A stretch of DNA of 64,000 nucleotides from an uncultured Dehalococcoidales bacterium (lineage in GTDB: Bacteria; Chloroflexota; Dehalococcoidia; GIF9; UBA5629). This document shows positions 17,183 through 63,434 of the stretch, one piece after another. Under the pieces are notes generated by a model, which worked only from the letters and a program-made list of their open reading frames with translations, made no database searches and was not told the origin of the DNA. The translations under genes were made by a program, and so were the position numbers. The stretch is from the NCBI GenBank assembly GCA_964519615.1, contig CAZFIM010000001.1, positions 37,065 to 101,064 on the forward strand, read 5' to 3'. The stretch's first letter is position 1; each line of letters begins with the position of its first letter.

Positions 17183-18006
17183 TGAAAAAGAAAGTCTTTG
17201 TAATCGATATTTCCAAGTGCAACGGATGTCATACCTGCCAGGTAGCCTGCAAAGACGAACATGTGGGCAATGACTGGACTCCTATAGCCAAGCCCCAGCC
17301 GGACAGCGGCCAGTTCTGGCTTGAGCTGACCGAGAGGGTCAGAGGCACCGTTCCTAAGGTAAAAGTAGCTTACCGTCCTCATCTTTGCGTCCACTGCGAC
17401 AAGGCCCCCTGTATGGATGCCTGCCCCATAGAGGGCACAATCTACAAGAGAGACGACGGTCTGGTGATTATCGATCCGGAGAAGTGCAACGGCTGTAAGA
17501 ATTGTGTGGATGCCTGCCCTTACGATGTTATCTTCTTCAATGAGGACCTCAATATCGCCCAGAAATGTACGGGCTGCGCTCATCTGCTCGATGGCGGCTG
17601 GACGGAGCCCCGCTGTGCCGATGCCTGTCCCACGCTGGCCCTGCGCTTAATGGATGAAGACAAAGCCAAAGACCTGATAGCAAAGGCCGAGGTCTGGAAA
17701 CCGGAGCTTAAAAACAAGGTGAAGCCGAGGGTCTATTACCTCAACCTGCCTAAAAAGTTTATTGCCGGCACTGTCTATGATCCGGTAGAGGAAGAGGTAA
17801 TCATCGGAGCTACCTGTACTCTGACGGAAGCCAAGGGCGGTCAGGAATATAAGATCAAGACCGACAGCTACGGCGATTTCTGGTTTGAAGACCTGAAAGA
17901 CGGTAAATTCAATCTGGAGATTAAGAGCGGTAAAAAGGTAAAAACCTTCAAAGGTCTGAATACTGCAGAGGCAGATATCAACCTGGGAGATATTCCGCTC
18001 ACGTAG
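17182..18006 (+). CDS. 4Fe-4S ferredoxin-type small subunit with C-terminal Ig/transthyretin-like domain (transhydroxylase beta-like)
   Basis: 274 aa. Four Cys motifs (CNGCHTCQVAC, CVHCDKAPCMDAC, CNGCKNCVDAC, CTGC..CADAC). ATGA overlap with the alpha subunit stop. Confidence 0.8.
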   Translation: MKKKVFVIDISKCNGCHTCQVACKDEHVGNDWTPIAKPQPDSGQFWLELTERVRGTVPKVKVAYRPHLCVHCDKAPCMDACPIEGTIYKRDDGLVIIDPEKCNGCKNCVDACPYDVIFFNEDLNIAQKCTGCAHLLDGGWTEPRCADACPTLALRLMDEDKAKDLIAKAEVWKPELKNKVKPRVYYLNLPKKFIAGTVYDPVEEEVIIGATCTLTEAKGGQEYKIKTDSYGDFWFEDLKDGKFNLEIKSGKKVKTFKGLNTAEADINLGDIPLT

Positions 18007-19909: not shown

Positions 19910-20359
19910 ATGGCAAACCTGATTTATGAGATGCCTACACGCTACGACAGGGGGATAAAGATCCTTTTCCTGATAATACTGCTCGTACTGGTTATTCCCG
20001 CCATATTCATCTTCGACAGCGACCGCGAGGGCGCTTTTGCAATGCTGGGGACCGTTATCCTGGTGGCATTCATCCTCTGGTTTATCATGCCGCGTAAACT
20101 GCGAATCATGGAGGACAGGCTGCAGGTTGTGCTCGGCAGCCCGTTTACATTCACAATTCCCTTCACTGCAATAAAAGAGGTCCGTATACCGCGAGGGCTG
20201 ACAAGCGGTGTCAACTTCTGCACCGCCCTCAGCGGCGTGGTGCAGATCGTCCGAAAGGGTAAAATGAGCGTAAATATTACGCCGGCCGAGCCGGCGCAAT
20301 TTATGGAATATCTCAATAAAGCGCTGTCAAATTCGCAGATACCGCATGAGGGCAGGTAA
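19910..20359 (+). CDS. hypothetical membrane protein (bacterial PH-domain-like)
   Basis: GGAGGA at 19895 then ATG at 19910. Two TM helices followed by a small beta-rich domain. Confidence 0.4.
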   Translation: MANLIYEMPTRYDRGIKILFLIILLVLVIPAIFIFDSDREGAFAMLGTVILVAFILWFIMPRKLRIMEDRLQVVLGSPFTFTIPFTAIKEVRIPRGLTSGVNFCTALSGVVQIVRKGKMSVNITPAEPAQFMEYLNKALSNSQIPHEGR

Positions 20360-28968: not shown

Positions 28969-30393
28969 ATGAGTAAACGCATCAGTTTCGGTACCGATGG
29001 ATGGCGCGCTATCATAGCTGAAGATTTCACCTTCGATAATGTCCGGGCCTGTGCCAGAGGGGTAGGTGAATATATAAACAGCCGGAAACTGGGGCGTAAA
29101 GGGTTGGTGATAGGGTATGACACGCGCTTTGCCTCAGAGCAGTTTGCTGCGGCGGCAGCGGAAGTTATCGCTGCCTGCGGTATTAAAGTACATTTCTTGA
29201 CTGAGGCAGCTCCTACACCCGCCATCAGCTATATCGTCACCGCAACGCAATCTGCCGGAGGCATTATCATCACCGCCAGCCACAATCCCGGCGCCTGGAA
29301 CGGTTTCAAATATAAAGACGAGACCGGCGCCAGCGCGGCAAGCGAGCTAGTGGCCGTCATCGAACAGAATACCAATAAAGTTCTTAAAAAAGGTGACATA
29401 AAGAGGATACCTTTCGAGCAGGCGGTACAGGCCGGCCTCGTGAGCCTTTATGAACCAAAACCGATCTACTATCCGCAGATAGAGCGTCTGGTGGACCTTA
29501 AGTCCATACGCGCAAGCGGTCTATCCGTTGTGGTGGACTCCATGTACGGAGCCGGTATAGGATATTTCAAGGAGCTTCTGAACGGCGGCACCGTCAAAGT
29601 CAATGAGATCAACGGCTGCCGTAATCCCCTCTTCCCCGGTATACAACCTGAGCCGATAGGCAAAAACCTGACTGACCTCTGTGCGCTGGTGCCGCAGCAG
29701 AAAGCAAATGTCGGGCTTGCCACAGACGGTGATGCAGACCGCATAGGCGTTGTCGATGAAAAAGGCACCTTTCTCACCACACATCAGGTCTTTGCCCTGC
29801 TTGCCCTCTATTTTCTGGATATACACGGAGAGAAAGGGCCGATCGTCAAAAGCCTGTGCTCCACCAACATGATCGAGAAGCTGGGATCTCTCTATAACGT
29901 ACCGGTTTATGAGACTAAAGTAGGGTTCAAATACGTGGCGCCGCTTATGAAGGAGCATGATGCCGCCATCGGCGGGGAGGAGAGCGGAGGCTACGGCTTT
30001 AGAGGTCACGTACCGGAGCGCGACGGTATACTGGCCGGGCTCTATTTTCTGGATTTCATGCTCAAGACGGACAAAACGCCCTCTCAGCTTATCGACTACC
30101 TCTACAGCAAGGTGGGGCCGCATTACTATGACCGCCTGGATTTTCACCTCGCTCCGGAGCAGAAACAGGCGCTCATGGGCAGGCTTGCAGAAGGTCGTAT
30201 AAGCACTATAGGCAAGAGCAAGGTGAAGAGAATCAACGATGCGGACGGCCATAAGTTTATACTTGAAGATGATTCCTGGCTGCTGATGCGTTTCTCCGGT
30301 ACCGAACCTTTGCTCCGCATCTATGCCGAGAGCAGCACCATGGACAAAGTTCAGGCGCTGCTTGTCCGGGGAAGGGAGATGGTGGGGTTATGA
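28969..30393 (+). CDS. phosphoglucomutase/phosphomannomutase-family enzyme (archaeal-type)
   Basis: TASHNPGAWNGFK active-site serine loop and the GLATDGDADR metal loop. Confidence 0.85.
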   Translation: MSKRISFGTDGWRAIIAEDFTFDNVRACARGVGEYINSRKLGRKGLVIGYDTRFASEQFAAAAAEVIAACGIKVHFLTEAAPTPAISYIVTATQSAGGIIITASHNPGAWNGFKYKDETGASAASELVAVIEQNTNKVLKKGDIKRIPFEQAVQAGLVSLYEPKPIYYPQIERLVDLKSIRASGLSVVVDSMYGAGIGYFKELLNGGTVKVNEINGCRNPLFPGIQPEPIGKNLTDLCALVPQQKANVGLATDGDADRIGVVDEKGTFLTTHQVFALLALYFLDIHGEKGPIVKSLCSTNMIEKLGSLYNVPVYETKVGFKYVAPLMKEHDAAIGGEESGGYGFRGHVPERDGILAGLYFLDFMLKTDKTPSQLIDYLYSKVGPHYYDRLDFHLAPEQKQALMGRLAEGRISTIGKSKVKRINDADGHKFILEDDSWLLMRFSGTEPLLRIYAESSTMDKVQALLVRGREMVGL

Positions 30394-31454
30394 ACGATCT
30401 GGACAATCCCGCTGTTTTTCGAGAACGCGATCCGCAGGACATGCGCTCTCATCTGCGCGGGCTGCCCAAACAATGCCTCGATGCATGGCACAGCGCACTG
30501 AGTTTAAAACTCCCCTCTGATTACCGCACCGCAAACAAGGTGGTAATCCTGGGCATGGGCGGCTCCGCTATCGGAGCGGACCTGCTCAAAGGCCTTGCTG
30601 CCGGGCAGTCCAGACCTCTCATTTTCGTAAACCGTGATTACACCCTCCCGCCGTACGTGGATGAATCCACGCTGGTAGTTGCTTCCAGTTATTCGGGCAA
30701 CACGGAGGAGGTACTCTCGGCGTTCAGTCAGGCGCTCAAAAGCAAATGTAAAAAGCTCATCCTGACCACAGGGGGAGAGCTGAAGGCACTTGCCGATAAA
30801 GCGGGGATTCCTGTATATACGATAAATCACGTTTCTTCGCCCCGGGCGGCACTCGGGTACAGTTTGATGCCTTTGATGGCCGTTTTACGCAATCTGGAGC
30901 TTTTTGAGAGCACGCAGGTTAATATCGAGTCCCTGAAAAGGCACTTGTTTCTCCTGCTGGACCAGATCAACGATGAGGTGCCCTCCGCGTCCAATCCGGC
31001 CAAGAAGCTGGCGCTGGCTATGCAGGGCAAGATTGCCGTAATCTATGGAGCAGGCATGCTCACCGATGTAGCCCGCCGCTGGAAGACACAGATAAATGAG
31101 AACAGCAAAGCGTGGGCCTTCTACGAGACCTTCCCCGAGCTTAACCACAACGCGGTGGTGGGCTACCGCTACCCTGATGGGATGGCGGACAGCCTTTTTG
31201 TGGTGATGCTGCGCAGTCCGCGCCTGCACCCTCGCGTCCTGCTCCGCTATGATATTACCGCCGACCTGCTGGCGCAGCACCGCGTCTCCCATACGATAGT
31301 TGACGGCAAAGGCATCGACGACTTAAGCCAGGTCATGACGCAGGTCTTCTACGGCGATTGGGTGAGCTACTATCTGGCCCTGCTCAACGATGCAGACCCC
31401 ACTCCGGTGGAGACCATCGATTATCTTAAAAAGCGCCTGAGCGAAAGCCGGTAG
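30390..31454 (+). CDS. bifunctional phosphoglucose/phosphomannose isomerase (SIS domain, archaeal-type)
   Basis: Tandem SIS profile. ATGA overlap with the upstream gene. Confidence 0.8.
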   Translation: MNDLDNPAVFRERDPQDMRSHLRGLPKQCLDAWHSALSLKLPSDYRTANKVVILGMGGSAIGADLLKGLAAGQSRPLIFVNRDYTLPPYVDESTLVVASSYSGNTEEVLSAFSQALKSKCKKLILTTGGELKALADKAGIPVYTINHVSSPRAALGYSLMPLMAVLRNLELFESTQVNIESLKRHLFLLLDQINDEVPSASNPAKKLALAMQGKIAVIYGAGMLTDVARRWKTQINENSKAWAFYETFPELNHNAVVGYRYPDGMADSLFVVMLRSPRLHPRVLLRYDITADLLAQHRVSHTIVDGKGIDDLSQVMTQVFYGDWVSYYLALLNDADPTPVETIDYLKKRLSESR

Positions 31455-31457
31455 CTT
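31426..31457 (+). repeat. direct repeat copy A (3' end of PGI/PMI gene)
   Basis: TTAAAAAGCGCCTGAGCGAAAGCCGGTAGCTT. Matches copy B at 41538-41578 in 31 of 32 positions, with indels. Confidence 0.7.
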
Positions 31458-31673
31458 TCCTGCAAGAGAGGCCTCACGAACCTGATAGCTCCATATGCGT
31501 GTTTGCCAGCAAAGTAGTTTACCGTACCCCGATTTTATCGGGATGCGCAATAACAAATTGGAATAACCTTCAAAAATAGCACCCCTTGCCCAAGTATTCT
31601 GAAGACTGAAAATAACGGCGATTTCATCTTCATTTTTCGTATCATTATTCACATTTACATTCTTCGGTCATTA

Positions 31674-33635
31674 CTAGAGCAAAGACGCGGTGCTGAAAGC
31701 ACTTCGCATTGCTTTTTGCACATTACCAGGCACGTTGCAGTCACCAATCATGAAAAACCTATCGGCTATGCCGTAAAATTTAAGTGCCATGTCGCTCTTA
31801 GCCTTCATACCTGCGGCAATAATTACACTGTCAGCTTCAATACTATGATCGACTCCCTCGGCATCCGTATATATTATTCCATTCTCCCGAATAGTCTTAC
31901 AATATGCCTTTAAGATATATTTAAATGTTGGTAGCTTCTCCCATGCTTCTCTGAACATGCCGTAGAAATGGACAGGCGCAACATTTGGTGCCAGCATATC
32001 AAGCATCTCCAATAAAATGATATGGTGTCCTTTCTCGGCTAGATGCATCCCGGTTTCTACACCGACCTCTCCACCACCGATAATTACAACCTTTTTTGCC
32101 AGCGATTCCTCATTCCCGTAAACATTTTCGGCAAACAGAACATTACTCCCATCCACGCCGGGAATCCGTGGAACAACTGGCTGAGCGCCTATAGCAACAA
32201 GCACGGCATCATAATGATCTTTTTTAAGTATTTCTGGAGTTGCTTCTGTATTCAAGAGTACTTTTACATTTGCTTTTTCAATCTGTCGGACAAGGTAGTT
32301 TTTAAAATCTCGCTGTGGCCATTTGAAAGAAACGTTATCAGTCGTTTTGAGGAGTCCCCCCAGAGAATCGCTTTTTTCGTATAATGTTACATGATGTCCT
32401 CTGCCGGCTGCTATCAAGCTTGCTTCCATCCCTGCTGGTCCTCCACCTATAACCGCAATGTTCTTTATATCAGTAGGAGGCGAAATCATCCTTTCGATTT
32501 TATGCTCCAACCCCCATACAGGGTTGACCGAGCATACACTGACCTTTGGGTCTGCGGGGGCTCTCCTCAGACACATATTACATCTCATACAGGGCACCAC
32601 ATCCTCCCCTCTCCCCTCGTATGCTAAGCGGCCGAAATTCGGGTTGCTTATCCAGACTCTGGCCATGGCGATGAAATCAGCTTTTCCCGAAGCAATAATA
32701 CTCTCACAAACATCTAGGTCCTGATATCCGCCAACAGTTACGATAGCAATGTTTTCTACACTCTTTTTAACGGCCTCTGCCATATAAAGGTACGGCGTGC
32801 GCTCCGGCATAAAGCCGGTGGGATGCGCAGGATCGATCTCCGGCGCCCTTATCTGGAGCAGGTCAATATGACCGGCGAACATCTTTGCATACTCCACGGC
32901 ATCCTCCAGGGTAAAACCTCCCGGCGGTTCGCAGCCGCTCATATTTGCTTCAATAAGGAAATCACGTCCGCACTTCTGCTTAATTCGATCGGCAACCATA
33001 AGCGGAAAACGTGCCCTGTTTTCCAGACTCCCGCCGTATTGGTCCGTTCTCTTGTTTGTAAGGGGAGATAAAAACCTCCCTAATATAGTAAACCTGTACG
33101 CCATATGTAGATACACCATATCAAAGCCCATGGATTTCATCATAAATGCCTGATGCACAAAATATTCGGCAACTTCATCCAGTAAATCCGCGGGAATTTC
33201 TTCACCTGTTCTGGGAGTAGCAAAACCTACATCTACAGAAAGGATCCCACTACTCACATCGTATTTAATCGGCACGTAGCCGCCGATCTGCATTGATGCC
33301 CTGGCACCATAGAAGTGGATTGCATCAGCCATCTGGCTGATGTAATTCTGGCAGTGCACATTATCAATATCAAAGGTACCCGGCAATATCCGCTTTGGGG
33401 AATACGTTTTTAGCTCGTCATCGGGAATTACCTCCGGCATGCCCACTCCTTTGCAGGTAACAAGAGCCGCACCGTTTCTGGCTTTATTGGCATAATGTGT
33501 AATCAGAGGCTCGGTAGGATATGGTTCTGAGCCCTGGATATAGCGGGGTGAGCTCCGCGATGCGATCATCCTATTTTTAAAAACGCTGTTGCCTACTTTA
33601 ATAGGTGACAATAGATTTTGGTATTTATGAGACAT
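31674..33635 (-). CDS. NADH:flavin oxidoreductase of the 2,4-dienoyl-CoA reductase/2-enoate reductase type (OYE TIM-barrel plus 4Fe-4S plus FAD/NAD(P) domain)
   Basis: 653 aa. Cys cluster CMRCNMCL..C. Two Rossmann GxGxxG motifs (VIGGGPAGME, IIGGGEVG). Confidence 0.8.
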   Translation of the reverse strand: MSHKYQNLLSPIKVGNSVFKNRMIASRSSPRYIQGSEPYPTEPLITHYANKARNGAALVTCKGVGMPEVIPDDELKTYSPKRILPGTFDIDNVHCQNYISQMADAIHFYGARASMQIGGYVPIKYDVSSGILSVDVGFATPRTGEEIPADLLDEVAEYFVHQAFMMKSMGFDMVYLHMAYRFTILGRFLSPLTNKRTDQYGGSLENRARFPLMVADRIKQKCGRDFLIEANMSGCEPPGGFTLEDAVEYAKMFAGHIDLLQIRAPEIDPAHPTGFMPERTPYLYMAEAVKKSVENIAIVTVGGYQDLDVCESIIASGKADFIAMARVWISNPNFGRLAYEGRGEDVVPCMRCNMCLRRAPADPKVSVCSVNPVWGLEHKIERMISPPTDIKNIAVIGGGPAGMEASLIAAGRGHHVTLYEKSDSLGGLLKTTDNVSFKWPQRDFKNYLVRQIEKANVKVLLNTEATPEILKKDHYDAVLVAIGAQPVVPRIPGVDGSNVLFAENVYGNEESLAKKVVIIGGGEVGVETGMHLAEKGHHIILLEMLDMLAPNVAPVHFYGMFREAWEKLPTFKYILKAYCKTIRENGIIYTDAEGVDHSIEADSVIIAAGMKAKSDMALKFYGIADRFFMIGDCNVPGNVQKAMRSAFSTASLL

Positions 33636-34213
33636 AAGAACTCCTTTTTAATACTATTTTAACCAGTTAATCGTTTGTGGCGAAGTAAAACGATATGTTA
33701 AGAACGACCACTCGTACCCACCGGATTCGGGCTAGAAAAAGCGACACCCCCAAAACCCCGGCCGGTTAATGGCGAATATAGCCATTGAGGAATAGCCTGC
33801 CTCCTTCCTATAAGTACCTTTAATAACAGCGGAAGAAATAGAGATAGGCCGCTTAAATCACTTCTTATACCACTATACTGCTCTACGCTTAAACTTGGCC
33901 TTCTCCGGAGATCTTGCACGTTTGCAGTATGGGCGTCTCAAGGGAACCATGTTAGTACCATACCAAATCAATCACATGTTATTACCGTGCCAATAGTTGC
34001 TATCGCAATAATATCTAATGGGATCAATAAGACATACAATGCTCAACTCTTGTGAACAGAAGCACCCGATACAATAGCTGATCATGCCTAATAATATCTA
34101 TTGTCGCTGATAGAATATCAATCCGTAGTACGGTGACCCAATTTACATGGACAGTATCCAGTATCACCTTAATAAATCTTCCGCCGTTTTCATTAATGGT
34201 TATGCATATCCGC

Positions 34214-34882
34214 CTATACAGTGGTTCCCTGTATAGGCGGCATGTTATGTTTCCTTCTGTCAATAATGGAAAGAAAAGCTTGACTTAATCCAATTTCTTC
34301 CCAATTCTGATCGTGTAATGAGGGAATAAAATAAACGCTGGTGCTTTTTATGCCGCCGGATAAAAGGGGTTTGGCTTTCCCGGAATCAACTAATGAGAAT
34401 ACAGGACTCTCCTTATCGTCTTGAAGGCCGAATAGTATTGCCTGTGCCGGACATGTTTCCACACACTTGGGTAGTAAACCTTTCTCTAGCCGGTCAGCGC
34501 AGAAATCACACACATCAGCTTTACCGTCCGGTCCAATATATATAACGCCATAGGGGCAAACGCCGGCACATAGTCCGCATCCATTACAACTTTCCTTATC
34601 TATTCTAATTATGCCGTCACTTCCCTGAGTTATAGCACCAGCATGACAAAAAGTTAAACAAACCGGATTTTCACAATGCATGCAATGTAGAGGTATAAAA
34701 GCCCTTTCTACCGTGGGAAATTTACCATATTCCCACTCGGCATATATCAATCTAGAATACTCGTATTTATGTGTTTTATCCCTGGGGTGAGCCAGTATAC
34801 CATGTTCTTTTTTACAGCTTACATAGCAGGTTCTGCAGCGAACACACTTGTTAAGATCTATGACCATTGCGTATTGTGCCAT
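34214..34882 (-). CDS. 4Fe-4S ferredoxin-type electron-transfer subunit (DmsB/PsrB-like) of molybdoenzyme
   Basis: Four CxxCxxCxxxCP-type motifs. Confidence 0.8.
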   Translation of the reverse strand: MAQYAMVIDLNKCVRCRTCYVSCKKEHGILAHPRDKTHKYEYSRLIYAEWEYGKFPTVERAFIPLHCMHCENPVCLTFCHAGAITQGSDGIIRIDKESCNGCGLCAGVCPYGVIYIGPDGKADVCDFCADRLEKGLLPKCVETCPAQAILFGLQDDKESPVFSLVDSGKAKPLLSGGIKSTSVYFIPSLHDQNWEEIGLSQAFLSIIDRRKHNMPPIQGTTV

Positions 34883-34883
34883 C

Positions 34884-37370
34884 CTAAGCCTCTTTATCGA
34901 TTTTTTGCAGCTTTACTATCGAGTAGTTTTTACCTACTCCTGCCGCATATGGGGAGACAGTCGTTGGAATAAGTCTGTTCATAGCTATAGCTGTATCGGC
35001 CTTATCGAGTTTATGTGTGGACTTATGTCCCGAGGCAAAATATATCCACAAAGCACTGGGATGCAATCCTTCAGTTACCTTTACCTTTGCCCTTTCTTTG
35101 TTCCCTACCGCTGTTTCATCATAAACACAACTATCCGTCTGTTTGGTTGGCCCTATACAGGTAACCTCGACAAGATCACCATCTGCTATATCCAGCTTCC
35201 CGGCTCGTTCGGTGTTAATGTACAATGTAGTATAAGGACATCCGCCCTCAATACCATCTTCCATTAAATACAAATTATTCTGAGTTGCACTTTTTTGATG
35301 CCACGATGCTTTCCCACATGTAAGAATAAATTCATCATCTCCGTCAGGTTGTGCCGTCGGTATATAATTTGGAAGCGGGCTCACGTGTGGGTTCCCTTTC
35401 CATACAGAATTAGTGTTGAAATAACATTCCTCAGCAAGCTCATTGGAATACATTTCAAACCGTCCACTTCTGGTTTTAATGGGCTTATAAAGTAAGTTAT
35501 ATTCAAGTGGATGTGATTCTAAGTAGGGGCCGTCATCAATCAACTGCCTGCTATTTACTCCGGGGTATAACCCGGCTCGCTTTAACATCCTGTCCCACCA
35601 TCCATAATCCAGGTCCAGTTTAGAAAAGTATTTCTCCATGCCAGCTTTTTTAGCCACCTCCACAAGAAACCAGCTAAGCGATTTTGCCTCTCCCGGCGGA
35701 GGGATCACCGCCGATCTCATATACAGGACATCGTGTTCTTTTCCGTCCGTGCCGATATAATTACGCTGATATAAGTGATATCTTTCCAGATAAGACGCTT
35801 CGGGAATTACGTAATCAGCCATATCGGTAAACTCTTTATATATCTGCTCACCTACAATGACAAGCTCAAGGTCGCTAATGCACCCGTTCACCAGATCAGA
35901 ATTAGACTGTGTAAGAGCGGCATTTTCAGCCGATGATAATACTGCTCGTACTTTTTTCTCTTTGATTGCATCAAAATGCAGCCACGGGAGCGCTACAGTG
36001 GCGGGATGGAATTTTCGCGGGTTTTCATAACAGGATGCTTTATCGATTGCCTCAATCGATATCATGTTTCCCCAGGGTCCTGGAACAGTATTAAGCTTAT
36101 CCCGATAGTCGGGGACTTCCGGAGGCTCCGGCCACCCATTGCCCAGATCGAATTTATGTTTGAGACAATAGTATCCCCCGGGTTTTTCGAAATTGCCAAG
36201 CAGCATATTGGTTGCACTGAACGCTCTTAGCGTCTGGAACCAGTTTGGATACCTCCCGGATGTGAAACCGGGATACAGGATTACAGCCGGTTTATTATTA
36301 CCGAGGTATCTTGCTATTTCCGCTACCTTCTCTTCCGGGAATGGTATATCAGCAGAATATTTCAGGGCTTCTTCCGCGAACATTTGAAAAACTGTTTTAC
36401 ATGTTATCGTTTCCCCGTTGTGTTCGACTTTAAAAGTCTGCCCTGAACCAAGCGTCAGGCCGTCTCGCATGCCCGCGCCTGGTAGAGGCTGTGCTGAACT
36501 GGTAGTGGTATTCCAGACCAGGTACATACCGTCTTTATTTGTCAGCGCCTGTCCATTGTCTTCACGTACAAGCTGACACGCATTTGTATAATTGAGAAGA
36601 AATTCCTCATCATACAGGTTTTCTTTAATCAGAATAGCCGCTATGTTTAACGCAAATGTTGCGTCTGTACCTGGCTTAATAGGGATCCATTCATCGCACC
36701 ATGCTGATGAGTCACTGAGCTTTGGATCAACTACAATAAATTTACATCCCTGCTCTCTGGCTTTGTTTGCCATAGCGTACATAGGTATGCTGCATGGAGA
36801 ACAATTACCCGGAAAGTTTTGTCCTCCTATCACCGCATATTTTGTTTTTGTGAAATCAACTGAAATTGAAAGGAAGGAGGGACCATGATTTTCACCAAAA
36901 GTAATCATTTTTTCCACAGCATGATCGCCAAAGCATGCCTGGCCGTGCAAATATGAGATGCCGGTTTTCATCACCGCAGACCAGTAATGTAAAAAGGGAA
37001 CCTTGTCTTGTTGATCGGGGCATCCCCACCATATTTCAAAATAATTTGGATACTCAGAATGATCATATCCCTGAAGTTTAGATGCCAGAGCCCCGATAAC
37101 CTCATCCCATGTACATCTGATGAATTTACCCTCACCTCTTTCTCCTATTCTCTTCAGAGGATATAATATTCTATTAGACGGATATACCCGGTCACTGACT
37201 CCTGAAATAGCTTTGCCGCAGATTTTCCCATTCCAATCAGGCAAGTCTTCTCCGGCTACTTCAACAATCCTGCCGTCTTTAACCCTCGCTTTCATCGGTG
37301 CGCCTATGCACATTGCGCAACCGCTATGCATCCACTTCCCATCTTCTTCACTTTTTTTTACGAACGCCAT
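34884..37370 (-). CDS. DMSO-reductase-family Mo/W-bisPGD oxidoreductase catalytic subunit, cytoplasmic (no TAT signal), atypical N-terminal H-x2-C-x2-C..C motif
   Basis: 828 aa. N-terminus HSGCAMC...KICGKA. Molybdopterin-binding fold throughout. Confidence 0.75.
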   Translation of the reverse strand: MAFVKKSEEDGKWMHSGCAMCIGAPMKARVKDGRIVEVAGEDLPDWNGKICGKAISGVSDRVYPSNRILYPLKRIGERGEGKFIRCTWDEVIGALASKLQGYDHSEYPNYFEIWWGCPDQQDKVPFLHYWSAVMKTGISYLHGQACFGDHAVEKMITFGENHGPSFLSISVDFTKTKYAVIGGQNFPGNCSPCSIPMYAMANKAREQGCKFIVVDPKLSDSSAWCDEWIPIKPGTDATFALNIAAILIKENLYDEEFLLNYTNACQLVREDNGQALTNKDGMYLVWNTTTSSAQPLPGAGMRDGLTLGSGQTFKVEHNGETITCKTVFQMFAEEALKYSADIPFPEEKVAEIARYLGNNKPAVILYPGFTSGRYPNWFQTLRAFSATNMLLGNFEKPGGYYCLKHKFDLGNGWPEPPEVPDYRDKLNTVPGPWGNMISIEAIDKASCYENPRKFHPATVALPWLHFDAIKEKKVRAVLSSAENAALTQSNSDLVNGCISDLELVIVGEQIYKEFTDMADYVIPEASYLERYHLYQRNYIGTDGKEHDVLYMRSAVIPPPGEAKSLSWFLVEVAKKAGMEKYFSKLDLDYGWWDRMLKRAGLYPGVNSRQLIDDGPYLESHPLEYNLLYKPIKTRSGRFEMYSNELAEECYFNTNSVWKGNPHVSPLPNYIPTAQPDGDDEFILTCGKASWHQKSATQNNLYLMEDGIEGGCPYTTLYINTERAGKLDIADGDLVEVTCIGPTKQTDSCVYDETAVGNKERAKVKVTEGLHPSALWIYFASGHKSTHKLDKADTAIAMNRLIPTTVSPYAAGVGKNYSIVKLQKIDKEA

Positions 37371-37467
37371 TGACTCTCCTTTGTCTAAAGCACATATTGC
37401 TATTTCCGGGTTAATAGTTCAGGAAGTTATCATCACCAACTGTTTCTTTTGCCGCAAATACAGCAGC

Positions 37468-38769
37468 TCATCCGGTCATATGCGTTGGCAGGAACATGGC
37501 TATTTCCGGAAACAGGATAAGCAGGATGATGCAGACGAACATTGGTATTATGAAGGGAATAACGCCTCTAAATATTGTGCCAAGCGAAATATCGCGGGCA
37601 ACTCCGTGGATAACATATACATTCATACCAAATGGAGGAGTAATCATACCCATCTCCATCATGATGACTACTATTACTCCGAACCAGATAAGATCATAGC
37701 CGACAGCCTGTACAGCAGGGTAAAAAATAGGTATCGTCAGTAGTATCATAGCCAGAGTATCCAGAAAACAGCCAAGGATTAAATATACAACTACAATAAC
37801 TATAATAACCACATAAGGAGTCTGGAGCGTACCAAGAATATCAGAAAGTACAAAAGGTATTTTTGAAAACGCAATAAAGGACGAAAATATAAGGGCTCCA
37901 ATAAGTATTGTGAAAATCATACCGGTGGTTATCATCGTTTCGGTGATGGACGTGCGTATTCCCTTCCATGTAAGCTTACGGCTTGCGAGAGCTATAATAA
38001 AGACAAGAAGAGCTCCCACCGCGCCTGCTTCTGTAGGTGTAAAAATCCCAGCATATATGCCTCCCATCATACCGATAAAGACGATCAATACAGGCCATAC
38101 TCCTGAGAGCGATTTCACCATTTCCTTAAATGGAGCGCGCTTTATGGCAGGCCCCATAGTGCCATCAATTCTGCACAATATGTATATGGTGCCTAAAAAT
38201 AGTAGCGCGAGGAGTATACCGGGTATAAAACCGGCAAGTAAAAGCTTGCCTACTGATTCTTCGACAAGTATTGCATAGATAACAAGCGGCACACTTGGTG
38301 GTATTAGTATACCCAGAGTACCTCCCGCAGCCACACAACCAGTCGCCAGCTTTTGAGAGTACTTATAGCGCTTCATTTCCGGCAGTGCGACAGCCCCCAT
38401 GGTAGCCGATGTGGCAAAACTCGAACCTGAGAGAGCAGCAAAAGCAGCACACGCCACAATACTGGCCATTGCCAGTCCGCCTTTTATATGTCCGACCCAC
38501 TTGTATGTAGTAGAGTAGAGGTCTACGCTTATGGCTGAATGAAAAGAGAACTGCCCCATTATAATAAACAAAGGAACAACACTTAGCGAATATGCTGCGA
38601 TAGTGTTATACGGGATTGTCCCAAGACAGGAAAGAGCGGAATCCATACCTCTGAAATAAATCAGTCCCAGAAATCCAATACCAGCCATCGAAAACGCAAT
38701 GGGCAATCTCAAAAACATGAGCACAATAAGAAGGGCAAGTCCTATAATACCAATTGTTACACTGCTCAT
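37468..38769 (-). CDS. dctM: TRAP transporter large permease DctM
   Basis: 433 aa, 12+ TM helices, DctM profile. Confidence 0.85.
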   Translation of the reverse strand: MSSVTIGIIGLALLIVLMFLRLPIAFSMAGIGFLGLIYFRGMDSALSCLGTIPYNTIAAYSLSVVPLFIIMGQFSFHSAISVDLYSTTYKWVGHIKGGLAMASIVACAAFAALSGSSFATSATMGAVALPEMKRYKYSQKLATGCVAAGGTLGILIPPSVPLVIYAILVEESVGKLLLAGFIPGILLALLFLGTIYILCRIDGTMGPAIKRAPFKEMVKSLSGVWPVLIVFIGMMGGIYAGIFTPTEAGAVGALLVFIIALASRKLTWKGIRTSITETMITTGMIFTILIGALIFSSFIAFSKIPFVLSDILGTLQTPYVVIIVIVVVYLILGCFLDTLAMILLTIPIFYPAVQAVGYDLIWFGVIVVIMMEMGMITPPFGMNVYVIHGVARDISLGTIFRGVIPFIIPMFVCIILLILFPEIAMFLPTHMTG

Positions 38770-39263
38770 TTTTTCATGGCCTCCCCAATGTTAGACAAGA
38801 TTTTTACCAGCAAAACGATGCATAGCAAGAAGAGGCCAAAGGCGAATATATAGATGAAAATTGAATCCGGCAAGTGTAGAACGGCAGAATATTGGCCGTA
38901 TTTTAACAATTTACTGCCATAGACAAAGGTTTGCCACGATATCAGACCAAATATGCAAAGCGCAAATAGATGAGTGATGATATAAACTATGGCCTGTGCC
39001 CTGCTCGGGAACGAAAAAAAGGTTACCGTAACATGCCTGTCGTGGATCATTGTATAGGATATTGCAAAACCTACCAGAACAACCAGTGTAAATACGATTA
39101 ACTCGAAGTCCCCAGGTATAGGGCTATTGAAGAGATATCGCAATATTACAGTTACGAAGGTGAAAAACATCATAAGAATAATAAGCATTCCACCCAAAAG
39201 GCTCAGTGCCCCGCTGACGGGATAAAATATCTTTTTTATGAATGCGGCTATTGCATCTATCAT
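38766..39263 (-). CDS. dctQ: TRAP transporter small permease DctQ
   Basis: 165 aa, 4 TM helices. 4-nt overlap with dctM. Confidence 0.7.
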   Translation of the reverse strand: MIDAIAAFIKKIFYPVSGALSLLGGMLIILMMFFTFVTVILRYLFNSPIPGDFELIVFTLVVLVGFAISYTMIHDRHVTVTFFSFPSRAQAIVYIITHLFALCIFGLISWQTFVYGSKLLKYGQYSAVLHLPDSIFIYIFAFGLFLLCIVLLVKILSNIGEAMKK

Positions 39264-39426
39264 ATAAACCTCATTCAGGTTAATACTATATCAGCTTTAT
39301 CAATTATCGATTAAGTCTGGCGACTGCTATATGCGGTATGTAACAAGATGACTATGTGGGAGATGGGCAAACCTTTCATTTAATGGTCTGCCCATCCCGT
39401 TGTCACCATTTAAGACACTTTACAGA

Positions 39427-40503
39427 CTATTTATATTCTGCAGACATCTCCAGTGCTGCGTTTACCATTTCCGTGCCTGGGAATCCTTTAGCATCCATAT
39501 CTGCAGCCCATTGGTCCCTCTGAGGTTTTACTGCCGCTTCAAATTTAGCCTTTTCAGCGGCTGAGACCTCTACTAATACCTGTCCCCCTTCAATGATTTT
39601 ATCGTAGGCGTTCCGGTCCATATCATACATTACCTGGGCATATACCTGTGAAGCTTTAGCTCCCGCATACTCATCGAACACTGCTTTTACATCTGCGGGC
39701 AAGCTATTATATTTTTCTTTGTTCATTACTACAAGGTGGCTGGTAGTTGCGATATCGACCATGGTCGTATATTTTGCTACCTCCCACAGTTTAAAGGCAT
39801 TATAACCTTCCCATTCGAACAGGGATCCATCCAGTGTGCCTCTTTCTATGGAAGTATAGATCTCTGAGGGAGGCATAGCCACCGGGACTGCCCCTGTCAA
39901 TGTAACCGTTTCTGTGGGGATACTCCCCGTTACTCTTATCTTCTTCCCTTTAAGGTCCGCGATTGTTTCTACCGGTTCAACCATTTGAAACTTTCTGGCA
40001 CCAAGCGGCGACCAGACCAGTACCTTCACATCGGCAAAATCATCCAGCATCTCAGGGAACATTTCATGAAGCCCCATGGCAACGCGGGTAGCGTTCACAC
40101 CGTCGCCAGGAAATATAAGCGGAAGTTCGACAATTTCATGCATAGGAAAACGGCCTGAGAGATAAGCGGGATTGATTAAAATGATATCTGCCGTGCCTTC
40201 TACAGCCAGGTCATACTGCTCCACCGATTTACCTAAAGCACCACCGACATACATTTCAAATGTCATTTTGCCATTGGTAGCATCTTTGATTTCGTTACAT
40301 ACAGCCTCCATGCTTACAGGGCCACCCGCAGGTCCGGGATCTGCCGTAGAAACGATTAAATTAACAACTTCAGTTGTATCCGGTATTGTTGATGGTGCAG
40401 GTGCCGGTTCAGTCGACGGGCTAGGTGCTGGCTGCGCACAACCAAGCATAGTCGAGCCCGCAATGATTACACTCACCATCAAAAGTATAAAGATTTTATT
40501 CAT
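39427..40503 (-). CDS. dctP: TRAP transporter solute-binding lipoprotein DctP-type
   Basis: Lipobox LGC followed by a Pro/Ala/Ser-rich linker. DctP-family fold. Confidence 0.8.
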   Translation of the reverse strand: MNKIFILLMVSVIIAGSTMLGCAQPAPSPSTEPAPAPSTIPDTTEVVNLIVSTADPGPAGGPVSMEAVCNEIKDATNGKMTFEMYVGGALGKSVEQYDLAVEGTADIILINPAYLSGRFPMHEIVELPLIFPGDGVNATRVAMGLHEMFPEMLDDFADVKVLVWSPLGARKFQMVEPVETIADLKGKKIRVTGSIPTETVTLTGAVPVAMPPSEIYTSIERGTLDGSLFEWEGYNAFKLWEVAKYTTMVDIATTSHLVVMNKEKYNSLPADVKAVFDEYAGAKASQVYAQVMYDMDRNAYDKIIEGGQVLVEVSAAEKAKFEAAVKPQRDQWAADMDAKGFPGTEMVNAALEMSAEYK

Positions 40504-40727
40504 TAGTATGCCTCCTTATAACGTTTAATAGTTTAGTTGCCAGGTAAAAACATCACAAAAGTTAATATAAAGCACGAATAATGAAAATACGAGACGCCAT
40601 AATTCCTACATTTTACTTAAATGTCCAACGGATGTATATATGTAAAATTAACTACTACTAAATAGTTATTTATTTGTTATAATTAATACTACTTCTTTAT
40701 TAATTCTGGCTTCTTCGAGAACTTAAA

Positions 40728-41377
40728 ATGAAGATAATGGTTGCTGATAAAAGAGAGCTATTTCGTGAAGGTTTAACCACTCTACTCAAAGCTAAATATG
40801 GGCGTAAATCGGTTTTTTCTTGTTCTGATCCGTCTAAATGCATAACAAAATGCATGGAGTGTGAGCCTGATATTATCATTATAGATATAGAGATTTACGA
40901 AAAAGATAGGAATCTGATAGAGGAAATACACAAATCTCTTCCCAATACAAAAATCCTGGTATTGACACATTCGATAAATAATGCTGATATGATTAATGCG
41001 ATAAAAAGCGGTTCGCGCGGATATCAAAGGACGTTTCGCTTCAACACCTTTGTGCGGTTATCACCAGTATTGCTTCGGGAGAAATGGTTATATCGGAGCC
41101 TTTGGCTTCAAGTATATTAAAAAAAGAAGGCATTTTTAAGTCTGATTTAGATAATTTTAATGAAAAAGATATTGCTGGTCTCACGGAAAAAGAAAAAAAA
41201 GTGTTGGCGCTATTGGCTAAAGGAGCTTCAAATAAACAAATAGCGCAGGAACTTAAGATTAGTGAAAATACAGTAAAAGCCCATATGCGAAATATATTTG
41301 AAAAACTGCGCGTACACAGCAGGCAGCAGGCGATATCTGTGCTATTTGGGAATAATCGGGCTTCTCAATCTGCCTGA
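40728..41377 (+). pseudogene. NarL/LuxR-family response regulator, frameshifted (REC domain in frame 1, linker plus LuxR HTH in frame 2)
   Basis: ORF 40728..41120 encodes a REC-like domain ending ..SGSRGY. Shifting reading frame at ~41021 gives [27 protein letters not shown].. continuing into the LuxR HTH of ORF 41084..41377. The REC has an atypical acidic pocket (VADKRE instead of DD). Confidence 0.55.
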
Positions 41378-41440
41378 TCCTAGATTTGCATCCGTTTTTA
41401 AACTCTATTCAAAGTAGTAGATTTGTCTCTTAGATGAAAA

Positions 41441-41467
41441 ACAATCCGATTCAACGAATCGGATTGT
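41441..41467 (-). terminator. perfect 11-bp hairpin with short U-tract on the minus strand (possible secondary terminator)
   Basis: ACAATCCGATT-caacg-AATCGGATTGT. The minus-strand 3' flank is TTTTC. Confidence 0.3.
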
Positions 41468-41537
41468 TGGAAGAAAGGTACCTTAGGCATCATCAATCTC
41501 ATCCGGTACATTTTGCCACAACGCCGCTAGCAGCTAT

Positions 41538-41578
41538 TTAAAGAAGCGCTTGAGCGAAAGCAGGAAAAGCGGTAGCTT
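41538..41578 (+). repeat. direct repeat copy B (intergenic relic of PGI/PMI 3' end)
   Basis: TTAAAGAAGCGCTTGAGCGAAAGCAGGAAAAGCGGTAGCTT. Confidence 0.7.
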
Positions 41579-41590
41579 ATCTGAAATTCA

Positions 41591-41623
41591 TAAAAAAGGC
41601 CTGCTCTTTTTAAGCAGGCCTTT
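41591..41623 (-). terminator. rho-independent terminator of the ribosomal superoperon
   Basis: AGGCCTGCT-taaaaagag-GCAGGCCT followed by TTTTTT on the minus strand, 20 nt after the rpsI stop. Confidence 0.7.
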
Positions 41624-41643: not shown

Positions 41644-42039
41644 TTAGCGCTTGGTGTACTGAGGCGCCTTGCGGGCACGTTTGAGACCGTACTTCTTGCG
41701 CTCTTTTTCACGCGCATCGCGTGTGAGCAGGCCCTCATTGCGCAGAGGGGTCCTGAAGTTCTCATTGTTCAGTACCAGGGCACGGGCGATACCAAGGCGG
41801 ATTGCTCCTGCCTGACCGGTAACACCGCCTCCGATTACTTTTACCTCGGCATTGTATTTGCCAACCGTATCTGTAGCCTTAAAGGGCTTTTCTATCGTTC
41901 GTTGATGCTCCACCCGTGGGAATCTTTGCTGATAGGGTTTCCCATCGATGATAATCTCTCCCGTTCCCTGTGTGAGCTTGACCTGGGCAATAGCGCTTTT
42001 GCGCCTGCCGGTACCTCGATCATAAGTTTGCGCGGACAC
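41644..42039 (-). CDS. rpsI: 30S ribosomal protein S9
   Basis: Conserved uS9 translation with C-terminal ..KRARKAPQYTKR. Confidence 0.95.
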   Translation of the reverse strand: MSAQTYDRGTGRRKSAIAQVKLTQGTGEIIIDGKPYQQRFPRVEHQRTIEKPFKATDTVGKYNAEVKVIGGGVTGQAGAIRLGIARALVLNNENFRTPLRNEGLLTRDAREKERKKYGLKRARKAPQYTKR

Positions 42040-61688: not shown

Positions 61689-62240
61689 ATGTGGAAAGCA
61701 ACGAAATGGCTTTTGGGAGCTACAGCAACAATGGTAGCCCTATATTTTGCTTCACTCCAAATTCCGGATAAACTTCCACCAAATATTTCTCTGATTATAT
61801 TTATTTTAGCTTGTATTTTCGCTACTTTATTTATATTTACTGGCATTGTATCTGCATATCTTTTTGTTAAAAAGCATCTATATCCTATCCGGTTCATTGA
61901 AGATGTTAAATGTACTTATTGGACTAAGGAAAAGCAAATGCAGGTAAGCTATCTGTTTTGTGATTATTCGGAATCTAATACCTTTACAGTTAATTGTATG
62001 GCAATTTTTAATGAGCAGGTCGTAAATATAGATAGATGTAGTCACTTAAACATGCTTGGTGATCAAGCAGCAAAATGTATAAAGGGTAAGAGAATATTTA
62101 TAGAACAATCAAAACACGATGTGGAAGTCATTATTCCTGATAAGTGTAAGATAACAGTACGTGTGAAACCATACGGTTTTGGGTGGAGGACTATACAGAA
62201 AACAGCAGAAGTTAAAACTCTGATTGTCGATCACGGATAG
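61689..62240 (+). CDS. hypothetical two-TM membrane protein with Cys-rich C-terminal soluble domain (AT-rich islet)
   Basis: Two N-terminal hydrophobic helices. No recognisable family. Local composition is markedly AT-rich. Confidence 0.4.
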   Translation: MWKATKWLLGATATMVALYFASLQIPDKLPPNISLIIFILACIFATLFIFTGIVSAYLFVKKHLYPIRFIEDVKCTYWTKEKQMQVSYLFCDYSESNTFTVNCMAIFNEQVVNIDRCSHLNMLGDQAAKCIKGKRIFIEQSKHDVEVIIPDKCKITVRVKPYGFGWRTIQKTAEVKTLIVDHG

Positions 62241-62373
62241 GTGATTTTATTAATCAGGCTAATTATTTCTTCTATCGTCCATATATGATCGGTTACTTTT
62301 GCTGCCATAGCTGGCGTTTTCCTCGGTATCCAGTAAACTCTAATCTATCTAGCGAGTAAATAAACTTTCACTA

Positions 62374-63144
62374 TTATTGTTGGTTTTTTAAAGGCAATTG
62401 AGAGATACATAGATGTTCATCAAGATTATCATATCCAATATCATAGTGCCAGTCAGTAATTTGGTTTAAACGTCTTGCGCCACCAGGTAGAAGTTCCCCA
62501 CCACGTGTTTTAAAAGCTACATTTACTACCCTTTTACCGCAATCTTTTACAACTTCAACAGCAGGAACATAATCTTGATCACCCGTAACAATAATAGCAA
62601 TATCATATATATCTTTGAGTGTAATTAAGTCGGAGGCCAATTTTACATCCACAGCTTTTTCTTTCCCTATTTTTTGTGTAAATAAATCATATCTACAATA
62701 TCCAGCTCTACGAAATTCAACAGCCTTTTGTTGAGAAGAAATACCATCTTGTATAGCAGTCCAACCATTAAATCTGTTTTGGAATTTCTCTCTTGTTTGC
62801 TCTAGTTCATTAATGAATGTTTTCATTCGATCAATAATCATGTCATCACTGAGTGTATCAAGTTCTGCTTTGTATGGTTCATGTTTGGAAAGCAGGTTCC
62901 GTGCATTAGATTGTTCTTTCTCGGGATTTGGGAAATGATAAGGGAAAAAGTCCACAGATTTAATAACGTACCAATAAGTTCTAATGCGCTCTCCTTCTTC
63001 ATCTGTACACTTTGATACAATCCAATTAAATAGTTCAGTCCAATTTGCTTGTTTTGGAAGGTAATGTTGCTGTGGGAATTCAGGAAATAGCTTAACTATG
63101 GAGTGCCGGAAATTTTCGCCATCAACAAAAACACAAACCCTCAT
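62374..63144 (-). CDS. NYN/LabA-like nuclease-domain protein with ~120-aa internal insertion
   Basis: MRVCVFVDGENF (NYN N-terminal Asp motif) and ..AVDVKLASDLITL..YDIAIIVTGDQDYVPAVEVVKDCGKRVV (NYN C-terminal motifs). ATG at 63144 with a G-rich RBS. Confidence 0.65.
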   Translation of the reverse strand: MRVCVFVDGENFRHSIVKLFPEFPQQHYLPKQANWTELFNWIVSKCTDEEGERIRTYWYVIKSVDFFPYHFPNPEKEQSNARNLLSKHEPYKAELDTLSDDMIIDRMKTFINELEQTREKFQNRFNGWTAIQDGISSQQKAVEFRRAGYCRYDLFTQKIGKEKAVDVKLASDLITLKDIYDIAIIVTGDQDYVPAVEVVKDCGKRVVNVAFKTRGGELLPGGARRLNQITDWHYDIGYDNLDEHLCISQLPLKNQQ

Positions 63145-63434
63145 AATTTCCCCCCATATAATAGTAATGGCGACAGACACGCAGTCCGTCGCCAAACCAA
63201 ACTAATCACTTAGGAAGCACCTAAGTTTCATATGATATTATGCACATTTTGTGATATTTGTCAATAATTTTTCCCTGATTTTTGCAGTACTTTTTTACCA
63301 GATTATTATTAAAGAAAATTCAAACTGACTTACCATCAATGAGATGTCTTCCACCCCTTGGGCGGAAAGCTATAAAAGGATAGCACGTGACGGACAGAAC
63401 GAAAAGACTGGATATAATAGTAATTACTTTAAGC

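Follow-up and report, generated by a model that had tools for sequence, protein, structure and literature searches.

A strain-variable accessory block bordered by a diverged copy of the PGI/PMI gene end in an uncultured Dehalococcoidales bacterium

The PGI/PMI-rpsI junction and its repeated gene end

The genome of an uncultured Dehalococcoidales bacterium (GCA_964519615.1, contig CAZFIM010000001.1), which the analysis placed in Dehalococcoidia, carries a low-GC accessory block of 10.1 kb between two convergent housekeeping genes. We analyzed positions 37,065 to 101,064 of the forward strand, a window of 64,000 nt. Coordinates are window positions unless a locus is named, and L029 and similar labels denote fetched contigs of relatives. 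To the left of the block is the gene for a bifunctional phosphoglucose/phosphomannose isomerase (PGI/PMI; 30390-31454, plus strand; Pfam bact-PGI_C, 1.2e-48; NCBIfam NF006426, 360 bits, over cutoff), the final gene of an AhcY-MetK-PGM-PGI run. To the right is rpsI (41644-42039, minus strand; Pfam Ribosomal_S9, 3e-43), the last gene of a convergent operon of ribosomal-protein genes and rpoA, whose protein is identical in L031. A bidirectional intrinsic terminator at 41595-41623, with an 11-bp stem between an A-tract and a T-tract and also conserved in L031, serves both the space between the two genes and rpsI. The best explanation of the block is that it is horizontally acquired accessory DNA in a naturally variable slot between convergent PGI/PMI and rpsI, with PGI/PMI best read as the target or anchor gene of the insertion.

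The two ends of the block are marked by a direct repeat of the PGI/PMI gene end. A preliminary description of this DNA reported that 31426-31457 (TTAAAAAGCGCCTGAGCGAAAGCCGGTAGCTT) recurs at 41538-41578, and realignment gave the same result, with 31 of 32 positions matching, one mismatch, and insertions of 1 and 8 nt. The repeat does cover the gene end, but not simply the last 32 nt of the open reading frame (ORF) as had been stated; the ORF stops at 31454, stop codon included, and the repeat goes 3 nt beyond. Similarity begins 4 nt before the start first given, at a Tyr codon TAT (31422 and 41535), and a weaker extension runs to 31465 and 41586. Copy 1 (31422-31465, plus strand; repeat families D7 and D12) thus comprises the last 10 PGI codons (YLKKRLSESR), the stop codon, and 11 nt past it. 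Copy 2, hereafter the relic (41535-41586, plus strand), consists of 30 nt encoding YLKKRLSESR in frame with five silent differences, an 8-nt insertion (AGGAAAAG), then CGGTAGCTT with the stop codon, and finally weak similarity. The first 30 nt can equally well be aligned in frame without gaps (family D7; offset 10113, or 3 x 3371); 25 of 30 positions are then identical and both copies translate as YLKKRLSESR. Past the insertion, CGGTAGCTT is common to both copies and 6 of the following 9 bases match. In all, the copies are ~83% identical with an indel: 25/30, the 8-nt indel, and a 9-nt identical stretch. The second copy had been placed just upstream of the rpsI terminator, and indeed it lies 9 nt before the terminator and 68 nt from the rpsI stop.

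Aligned against the 12 kb downstream, the 63-nt PGI gene end scores 44, compared with 20.6 +/- 1.9 in shuffles. In an all-against-all comparison of the whole window the same pair is the top direct repeat (score 44), above the maxima of 25 dinucleotide shuffles (33-41, mean 36.3, sd 2.1). An all-against-all blastn does not bridge the 8-nt gap and returns E ~1 for the first segment alone; the significance of the repeat therefore rests on the gapped alignment and on the position of the copies. A separate 19-nt perfect direct repeat, between a host gene (19971-19989) and the molybdenum enzyme gene of the block (35934-35952), scores 39, within the shuffle maxima, and is probably due to chance. The PGI stop codon is also spanned by a perfect palindrome, GAAAGC-CGGTA-GCTTTC (31443-31459), and L029 (GCTGTC) and the relic (GCTTAT) have imperfect right arms. 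The palindrome may be a core-type site for a recombinase, or no more than a small hairpin.

Only two close contigs, L029 and L031, were found in the collections, and both are short; the 90% clusters of PGI and rpsI hold the source contig and these two only. Exact-protein look-ups of PGI, the flavoenzyme, DctP, and the molybdenum enzyme of the block returned nothing besides L029 and L031. L029 is 97.6% identical to the window over 4.65 kb, with a PGI protein (P0001) 99% identical to that of the window, and matches up to 31456 (TAGCT); from 31457 on it is unrelated. L031 is 98.9% identical over 892 nt; its match starts at 41590, where the conserved right flank begins, and continues to the right through the terminator, and left of this point the two are unrelated. 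From these breaks, at 31456/57 and 41589/90, the variable segment is therefore 31457-41589, relic included. The intergenic position given for the second copy thus holds, but relative to L031 the copy sits inside the variable segment and not in conserved flank. Presence of the block is strain-variable, as it is absent from near-identical strain contigs. The earlier suggestion of an old, stabilized insertion is doubtful, since the block is polymorphic between strains whose flanks are 1-2% apart.

In place of the block, L029 contains a 475-nt module (L029 4736-5209) that is shared with a more distant contig, L030 (2798-3271). It encodes a 79/95-aa ORF without a Pfam match, and the ORF79 peptide had no match in metagenome contigs. 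The module is 88% identical between L029 and L030, although the PGM-PGI region of L030 is only 75% identical to the window and its PGI 72%. Amino-acid identity of the ORF is roughly equal to its nucleotide identity. This pattern suggests that the module has been recently shared, or is mobile, as alternative slot content. Elsewhere in L029 (835-3581), MetK and PGM are split across frames and mismatches are clustered, suggesting indel errors in a metagenome contig. The junction of L029 with its alternative slot content is independently backed by L030.

Genes and composition of the accessory block

Eight ORFs, representing seven genes of which one is frameshifted, fill the block. Their GC content at third codon positions (GC3) is 0.30-0.48 (mean 0.40) versus 0.55 +/- 0.08 in 63 other ORFs (Mann-Whitney p = 4e-5), and the steps at both borders are abrupt: from 0.69 in PGI to 0.46 in the first block gene, and from 0.30 in the last to 0.56 in rpsI. 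Overall GC is 0.39-0.48 in the block and 0.50-0.54 in the flanks. Windowed GC and GC3 therefore bear out the preliminary description, in which the block differed in composition from both sides; Pfam and NCBIfam likewise recovered the gene content listed there, namely a reductase, a Mo/W enzyme pair, a tripartite ATP-independent periplasmic (TRAP) transporter, and a frameshifted regulator.

The first gene (31674-33635, minus strand) encodes an Fe-S flavoenzyme of the old yellow enzyme (OYE)/FadH type, with Pfam domains Oxidored_FMN and Pyr_redox_2. It resembles 2,4-dienoyl-CoA reductase, enoate reductase, and BaiCD, and its best NCBIfam matches are under cutoffs. A 578-nt gap (33636-34213) with two small ORFs (73 and 79 aa) lacking family matches separates it from a gene for a 4Fe-4S electron-transfer subunit of a Mo/W enzyme (34214-34882, minus strand; Pfam Fer4_11, 5e-22; NCBIfam match to dimethyl sulfoxide (DMSO)-reductase type II beta-like, below cutoff), whose end is overlapped by a strong 12-bp hairpin at 34210-34240. 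Next lies the catalytic subunit of a molybdopterin oxidoreductase of the DMSO-reductase family (34884-37370, minus strand; Pfam Molybdopterin and Molydop_binding). The TRAP transporter follows on the same strand, as DctM (37468-38769; Pfam DctM, 9e-97), DctQ (38766-39263; Pfam DctQ, 7e-22), and DctP (39427-40503; Pfam DctP, 2.5e-47).

The last gene, on the plus strand, encodes a LuxR/NarL-type response regulator (40728-41377) that is frameshifted near 41025. Response_reg falls in ORF 40728-41120 and GerE in ORF 41084-41377, and tblastn with the intact regulator of L032 locates the frame switch between residues 103 and 106. The frameshift is either pseudogene decay or a sequencing error. No partner histidine kinase adjoins the block regulator; L032, which holds a related cluster, has an intact kinase-regulator pair. 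Directly downstream of the regulator, a terminator-like hairpin with a 13-bp stem (41440-41468) is probably its terminator, and ~65 nt of unassigned DNA separate this hairpin from the relic.

The closest non-self molybdenum enzyme is also on L032, where molybdopterin oxidoreductase, 4Fe-4S, TRAP, and OYE genes form the related cluster in another gene order and neighborhood. It is just 70% identical, and the donor is therefore unsampled. The Mo/Fe-S pair alone was found in still other contexts. Judged by these families, the block would be a functional accessory cluster for organic-acid uptake (TRAP) and redox conversion (Mo/W enzyme and OYE); it is not a phage or conjugative element.

Several other identities were considered and rejected. 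The block is not an integration at a tRNA or transfer-messenger RNA (tmRNA) gene, as the window contains neither, and no Rfam family was detected in the block, at its ends, or in L029-L031. Nor does it qualify as a transposon or insertion-sequence composite: there are no terminal inverted repeats (score 16 versus 18 +/- 2.6 in shuffles) and no transposase, and the repeat measures 36-44 nt. As an integration target, the 3' end of rpsI itself does not fit, because L031 homology passes the terminator to 41590, 54 nt past the rpsI stop, and the block has no copy of the rpsI end. Viral contigs contain neither a relative of the molybdenum enzyme nor the PGI-end pattern, arguing against a prophage or viral origin. 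An assembly chimera was rejected because rpsI, the exact syntenic partner, follows the block and no shared exact match exceeds 11 nt.

Two other regions of the window touch on the same themes. At 14510-18006 there is a second molybdopterin oxidoreductase with a 4Fe-4S subunit; its first domain is AhtL-like, of the pyrogallol hydroxytransferase type. The GC3 of this pair is host-like (0.62-0.64), and therefore the genome already had a resident enzyme pair of the same superfamily as that of the block. Just past rpsL, at the end of the ribosomal region, a second low-GC patch (61689-63195) contains two ORFs of GC3 0.25-0.27, one with an NYN domain and the other without a Pfam match. This may be another acquired segment.

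Origin of the scar and route of entry

The order AhcY-MetK-PGM-PGI converging on rpsI-rplM-truA-rplQ-rpoA is kept in several Dehalococcoidia lineages, and the contents of the junction differ among them. L011 and L004 have no gene there, with spacers of ~50 and ~250 nt, respectively. L035 has one iron-dependent alcohol dehydrogenase (Fe-ADH) gene, L013 a CorA gene, L037 and L038 an acetyltransferase (GNAT) gene plus an unknown gene, and L010 four to five genes (amidohydrolase, aminotransferase, ornithine cyclodeaminase (OCD), and the ammonium transporter Amt), compared with the eight ORFs for seven genes of the window. The junctions of these relatives contain neither an integrase nor a repeat. 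Downstream of PGI, other relatives (L001-L008) have unrelated housekeeping genes, without an integrase. The junction thus holds zero to five unrelated genes across relatives and is empty in L004 and L011; therefore direct adjacency of PGI and rpsI is likely ancestral, judging from these gene orders, and the junction appears to be a recurrently used slot. The empty junctions support the proposal that PGI/PMI originally abutted the end of the ribosomal operon. They come from distant relatives, with PGI identities of 49-56%; the empty site for which a comparison with relatives had been suggested was found in these two but in no close relative.

The relic had been described as a duplicate of the PGI/PMI 3' end. 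It is gene-end sequence, but not a simple copy, since its five silent differences mark it as a different functional allele. From copy 1 to the relic, the codon changes are CTT to TTA, AAA to AAG, CTG to TTG, and CGG to AGG, and five random substitutions would all be silent with a probability of 3e-4 to 7e-4. Rather than a local duplication, the relic is therefore part of a PGI gene from another lineage, in which it was functional. With L030 as the outgroup, three of the five changes lie on the side of the relic. Of the sequences available, the PGI end of the window itself comes nearest to the relic (25/30; next best, 21/30), and the relic's source is therefore a fairly close relative. A search for this donor or for further strains by degenerate back-translation of YLKKRLSESR found no match in metagenome contigs. 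The 17% divergence between the copies is also far above the 1-2% between strains that differ in the block, and therefore the copy arrived already diverged.

Which of the two copies is native can be addressed from the close strains. Copy 1 is base-for-base the same in L029 up to 31456, and L029 does not have the block. The GC3 of PGI/PMI, 0.69 for the gene, is still 0.68-0.83 up to the 3' end, with no donor-like tract. In L031, no trace of the relic, decayed or otherwise, was found in the tail and flank beside the conserved terminator, and therefore the relic travels with the block. Together these three observations suggest that copy 1 is resident and that the left part of the relic was imported with the block, the assignment we favor on sequence grounds. 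Two Leu codons that the host seldom uses, TTA and TTG, occur in the relic; a codon-usage likelihood comparing the relic with copy 1 points weakly the same way, too weakly to decide.

Considering these results, we tentatively propose, with a probability of roughly 0.45, that the block entered by single-crossover insertion of a circular DNA carrying a mimic of the PGI end, as at an attachment (att) site. The repeat copies fall at the two ends of a segment that deviates in composition and is also missing from near-identical strain contigs, and a foreign copy of the gene end at the far side of the insert, in direct orientation, is the product expected of a single crossover with a circular molecule. 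The spacing of relic, terminator, and rpsI (68 nt versus ~50 nt in L011) also matches that of an empty junction. The copies would then be the left and right junctions of a Campbell-type insertion. The incoming circle would have carried its own PGI 3' end, acquired or kept as an attachment site in an earlier, related host, and the crossover, of the attP x attB type, would have occurred at or to the right of the shared CGGTAGCTT. Copy 1 would thus stay native, while copy 2 would keep the foreign, silently diverged codons and later gain the 8-nt insertion by slippage. The recombinase may have been supplied in trans or since lost, as in cis-mobilizable elements. The proposal predicts an empty site of the form ...GAAAGCCGGTAGCTT-ATCTGAAATTC-ATAAAAAAGGCC, with the left part of copy 1 joined to ATCTGAAATTCATAAAAAAGG, and a circle junction ...GAAAGCAGGAAAAGCGGTAGCTT|TCCTGCAAGAGAGG. 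Possibly the integration itself took place in a donor lineage, and homologous recombination in the flanks later transferred the slot allele as a whole. The frameshifted regulator would show decay under way, unless the frameshift is a sequencing error.

A number of observations weigh against single-crossover insertion. The first three silent differences could instead be read as two 1-nt indels that compensate each other, leaving two unambiguous silent changes (P = 0.046). The breaks in L029 and L031 fall where constrained sequence stops, at the coding region and at the terminator; any two different slot contents would give them, and on their own they are not junctions of a mechanism. The near-identical strain is not an empty site, as other DNA fills its slot, and L031 is without the 11 nt (41579-41589) that the model treats as native. 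Profiles for integrases, resolvases, and transposases (Phage_integrase, Resolvase, Recombinase, rve, DDE) matched none of the ~65 window ORFs scanned, which include all those in or near the block and most of the remaining window; the absence of an integrase noted at the outset thus extends beyond the block. No relaxase was found in the block or in scans of the 64-kb window either. Among relatives, no PGI-linked integrase was found downstream of PGI in L002, L003, L006, L008, L010, and L013, nor among the called genes of L035 and L037. A PGI-end scar was absent from six other slots, occupied (L010, L013, L035, L037, and L038) or empty, and from the fetched loci with enough DNA downstream of PGI, and the slot borders of relatives shared no common motif; a dedicated PGI-targeting system is without independent support. 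The copies share no perfect match longer than 11 nt, a poor substrate for RecA, and therefore a site-specific recombinase, acting in trans or since lost, is the likelier agent. Of the original proposal of site-specific integration at a gene 3' end, insertion into the ancestral PGI-rpsI junction is supported, and the recombinase is putative. Site-specific integration is the best mechanism, albeit unproven. What the sequences show is the repeat and its coding-type divergence, the deviant composition, the polymorphism between strains, and the ancestral synteny; from these we infer a circular intermediate, where it crossed over, and a role for a site-specific recombinase.

An alternative is that linear foreign DNA, anchored by homology in PGI, brought its own PGI 3' end along with the block and was joined illegitimately at its far end 30 nt before the resident stop. 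On this view, the old resident end would still be in place as the relic, and copy 1 would be the import. The geometry is appealing, since relic, terminator, and rpsI are arranged as in an empty junction (68 nt versus ~50 nt in L011). The two ends also look like orthologues with silent differences only, and no recombinase is required, consistent with none having been found. Precedents exist in the e14 prophage of E. coli icd (PMC6379469) and in homology-facilitated illegitimate recombination that leaves orphan 3' ends (PMC5361080). However, L029 ends its PGI with exactly copy 1 yet has no block, the two PGI proteins are 99% identical throughout, and GC3 stays high to the end of the gene. L031 lacks the relic beside the conserved terminator and, as a weak argument, the rare Leu codons are in the relic. 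We consider this displacement of the gene end unlikely. A scheme with more steps, in which a larger foreign segment comprising the block and a donor AhcY-to-PGI operon landed after the resident PGI and the redundant operon was later deleted except for its last 30 nt and stop, also dispenses with a recombinase. It explains why a foreign PGI end of coding type lies right of the block, and why homology has a sharp left edge at the TAT codon. It is nevertheless improbable, as it takes at least two independent events with convenient endpoints, 41378-41534 contains no further donor-operon debris, and no sampled relative has such a cluster upstream of AhcY.

The remaining explanations concern the repeat itself. 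Duplication of 36-44 nt in situ as the block was inserted, through staggered cuts or replication slippage, followed by divergence in place, would explain why the relic is most like the window's own PGI end, and an 8-nt insertion is typical of pseudogene decay. A non-coding relic, however, should not gather silent changes only (P 3e-4 to 0.05, depending on the alignment), and a divergence of 17% does not fit a block whose presence varies between strains that differ by 1-2%. Target-site duplications of transposons are usually a few bp, far shorter than 36-44 nt, and the block has no terminal inverted repeats. We therefore give in situ duplication little credence. It is highly improbable that the similarity is mere chance or low complexity and that the block entered the slot by unrelated means. 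The blastn value of ~1 and the lack of a scar in other occupied slots would allow it, but the pair exceeds all 25 shuffles (a Gumbel estimate by hand from their mean and sd gives ~0.005), its copies lie at both ends of a variable low-GC segment that was defined independently, the peptide stays in frame, and CGGTAGCTT with its stop codon is common to both copies after the gap. The most far-reaching idea, and a long shot, is that the convergent PGI/PMI-rpsI junction in this Dehalococcoidia group is a dedicated gene-capture site. Here an unlinked, trans-acting recombinase would read the PGI-end palindrome and swap integrase-less metabolic cassettes, and among sampled cases only the window would still retain the attachment-site copy.

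Comparison with known integrative elements

Integration into the 3' ends of single-copy housekeeping genes, with direct repeats of the gene end and integrase-less derivatives, is known from Dehalococcoides (PMC3146451) and from streptococcal fda, rpsI, and rpmG (PMC7563491). The PGI/PMI gene is not among the integration targets named in these papers or in PMC6379469, although no systematic literature search was made. It would join the protein-coding genes with 3'-end landing sites, such as fda, rpsI, rpmG, icd, and others. Like integrative islands, the block has gene-end direct repeats, albeit diverged, strain-variable presence, and deviant composition; it has no integrase.

The closest parallels may be the cis-mobilizable elements (CIMEs) of streptococci and elements of the ICESt1/ICESt3 type (PMC7563491), which are likewise strain-variable islands of 1-13 kb with metabolic cargo. 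On both sides of streptococcal CIMEs lie direct repeats of the 3' end of a housekeeping protein gene, there glycolytic or ribosomal, and these elements lack integrase, relaxase, and transfer genes (PMC7563491). The window block similarly has the repeats, and signature genes of recombination and transfer were not found in it. A CIME also implies an integrative and conjugative element (ICE) or integrative and mobilizable element (IME) of the same specificity; no PGI-adjacent integrase was found in the scanned relatives, and nothing in viral contigs. With no related integrase-bearing element of the same target found, derivation from an ICE or IME is unproven. Unlike those of streptococci, the repeats here are ~83% identical with an indel, and the phylum is Chloroflexota.

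The ssrA genomic islands of Dehalococcoides (PMC3146451) also belong to Dehalococcoidia and occupy the 3' end of a single-copy essential gene with a gene-end direct repeat; some are tandem islands without an integration module, proposed to be cis-mobilizable (PMC3146451). By analogy, the block resembles a cis-mobilizable element (PMC7563491) or these integrase-less tandem islands (PMC3146451). It is not itself an ssrA island, as the window has no tmRNA or tRNA gene, the block no Rfam match, and neither a recombinase. Their target is a tmRNA gene, with a near-perfect 20-bp repeat and a DsiB/DsiA serine recombinase module next to attL, whereas here the target is protein-coding, with no ssrA in the window and no recombinase.

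Phage 21 integrates in E. coli icd, as does the e14 prophage. The e14 case (PMC6379469, citing Hill et al. 1989) is similar in that integration is inside the 3' end of a central-metabolism gene, and two versions of the gene end, with mostly silent or conservative differences, flank the element and leave the gene intact. However, e14 encodes an integrase and supplies the functional end, displacing the native 163-bp fragment to the far side, while here L029, L031, and GC3 lean to the opposite assignment, with copy 1 native. Arrays of type VI secretion system (T6SS) effectors and Rhs genes (PMC5361080) also place new DNA behind a conserved gene and leave an orphan 3' fragment downstream of the new module. 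Those are toxin genes whose 5' parts are constant and whose 3' parts vary, plus immunity genes; at this locus there is a housekeeping enzyme, a 10-codon relic, and no donor tract visible in PGI.

Taken together, the locus offers a base-by-base record of an uncultured Dehalococcoidia strain acquiring a 10-kb cluster of uptake and redox genes at a junction of conserved housekeeping genes. Divergence of the scar by silent changes only is a simple, reusable argument that the gene end was imported with the island and not copied locally. By implication, the same gene end had already served the island in an earlier host. The analysis also marks the PGI-rpsI junction as a variable slot that merits attention in pangenomes of Dehalococcoidia. 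Compared with the systems above, the block is a genomic island of an ordinary, integrase-less kind whose insertion scar is unusually readable, and not a new kind of mobile element or mechanism.

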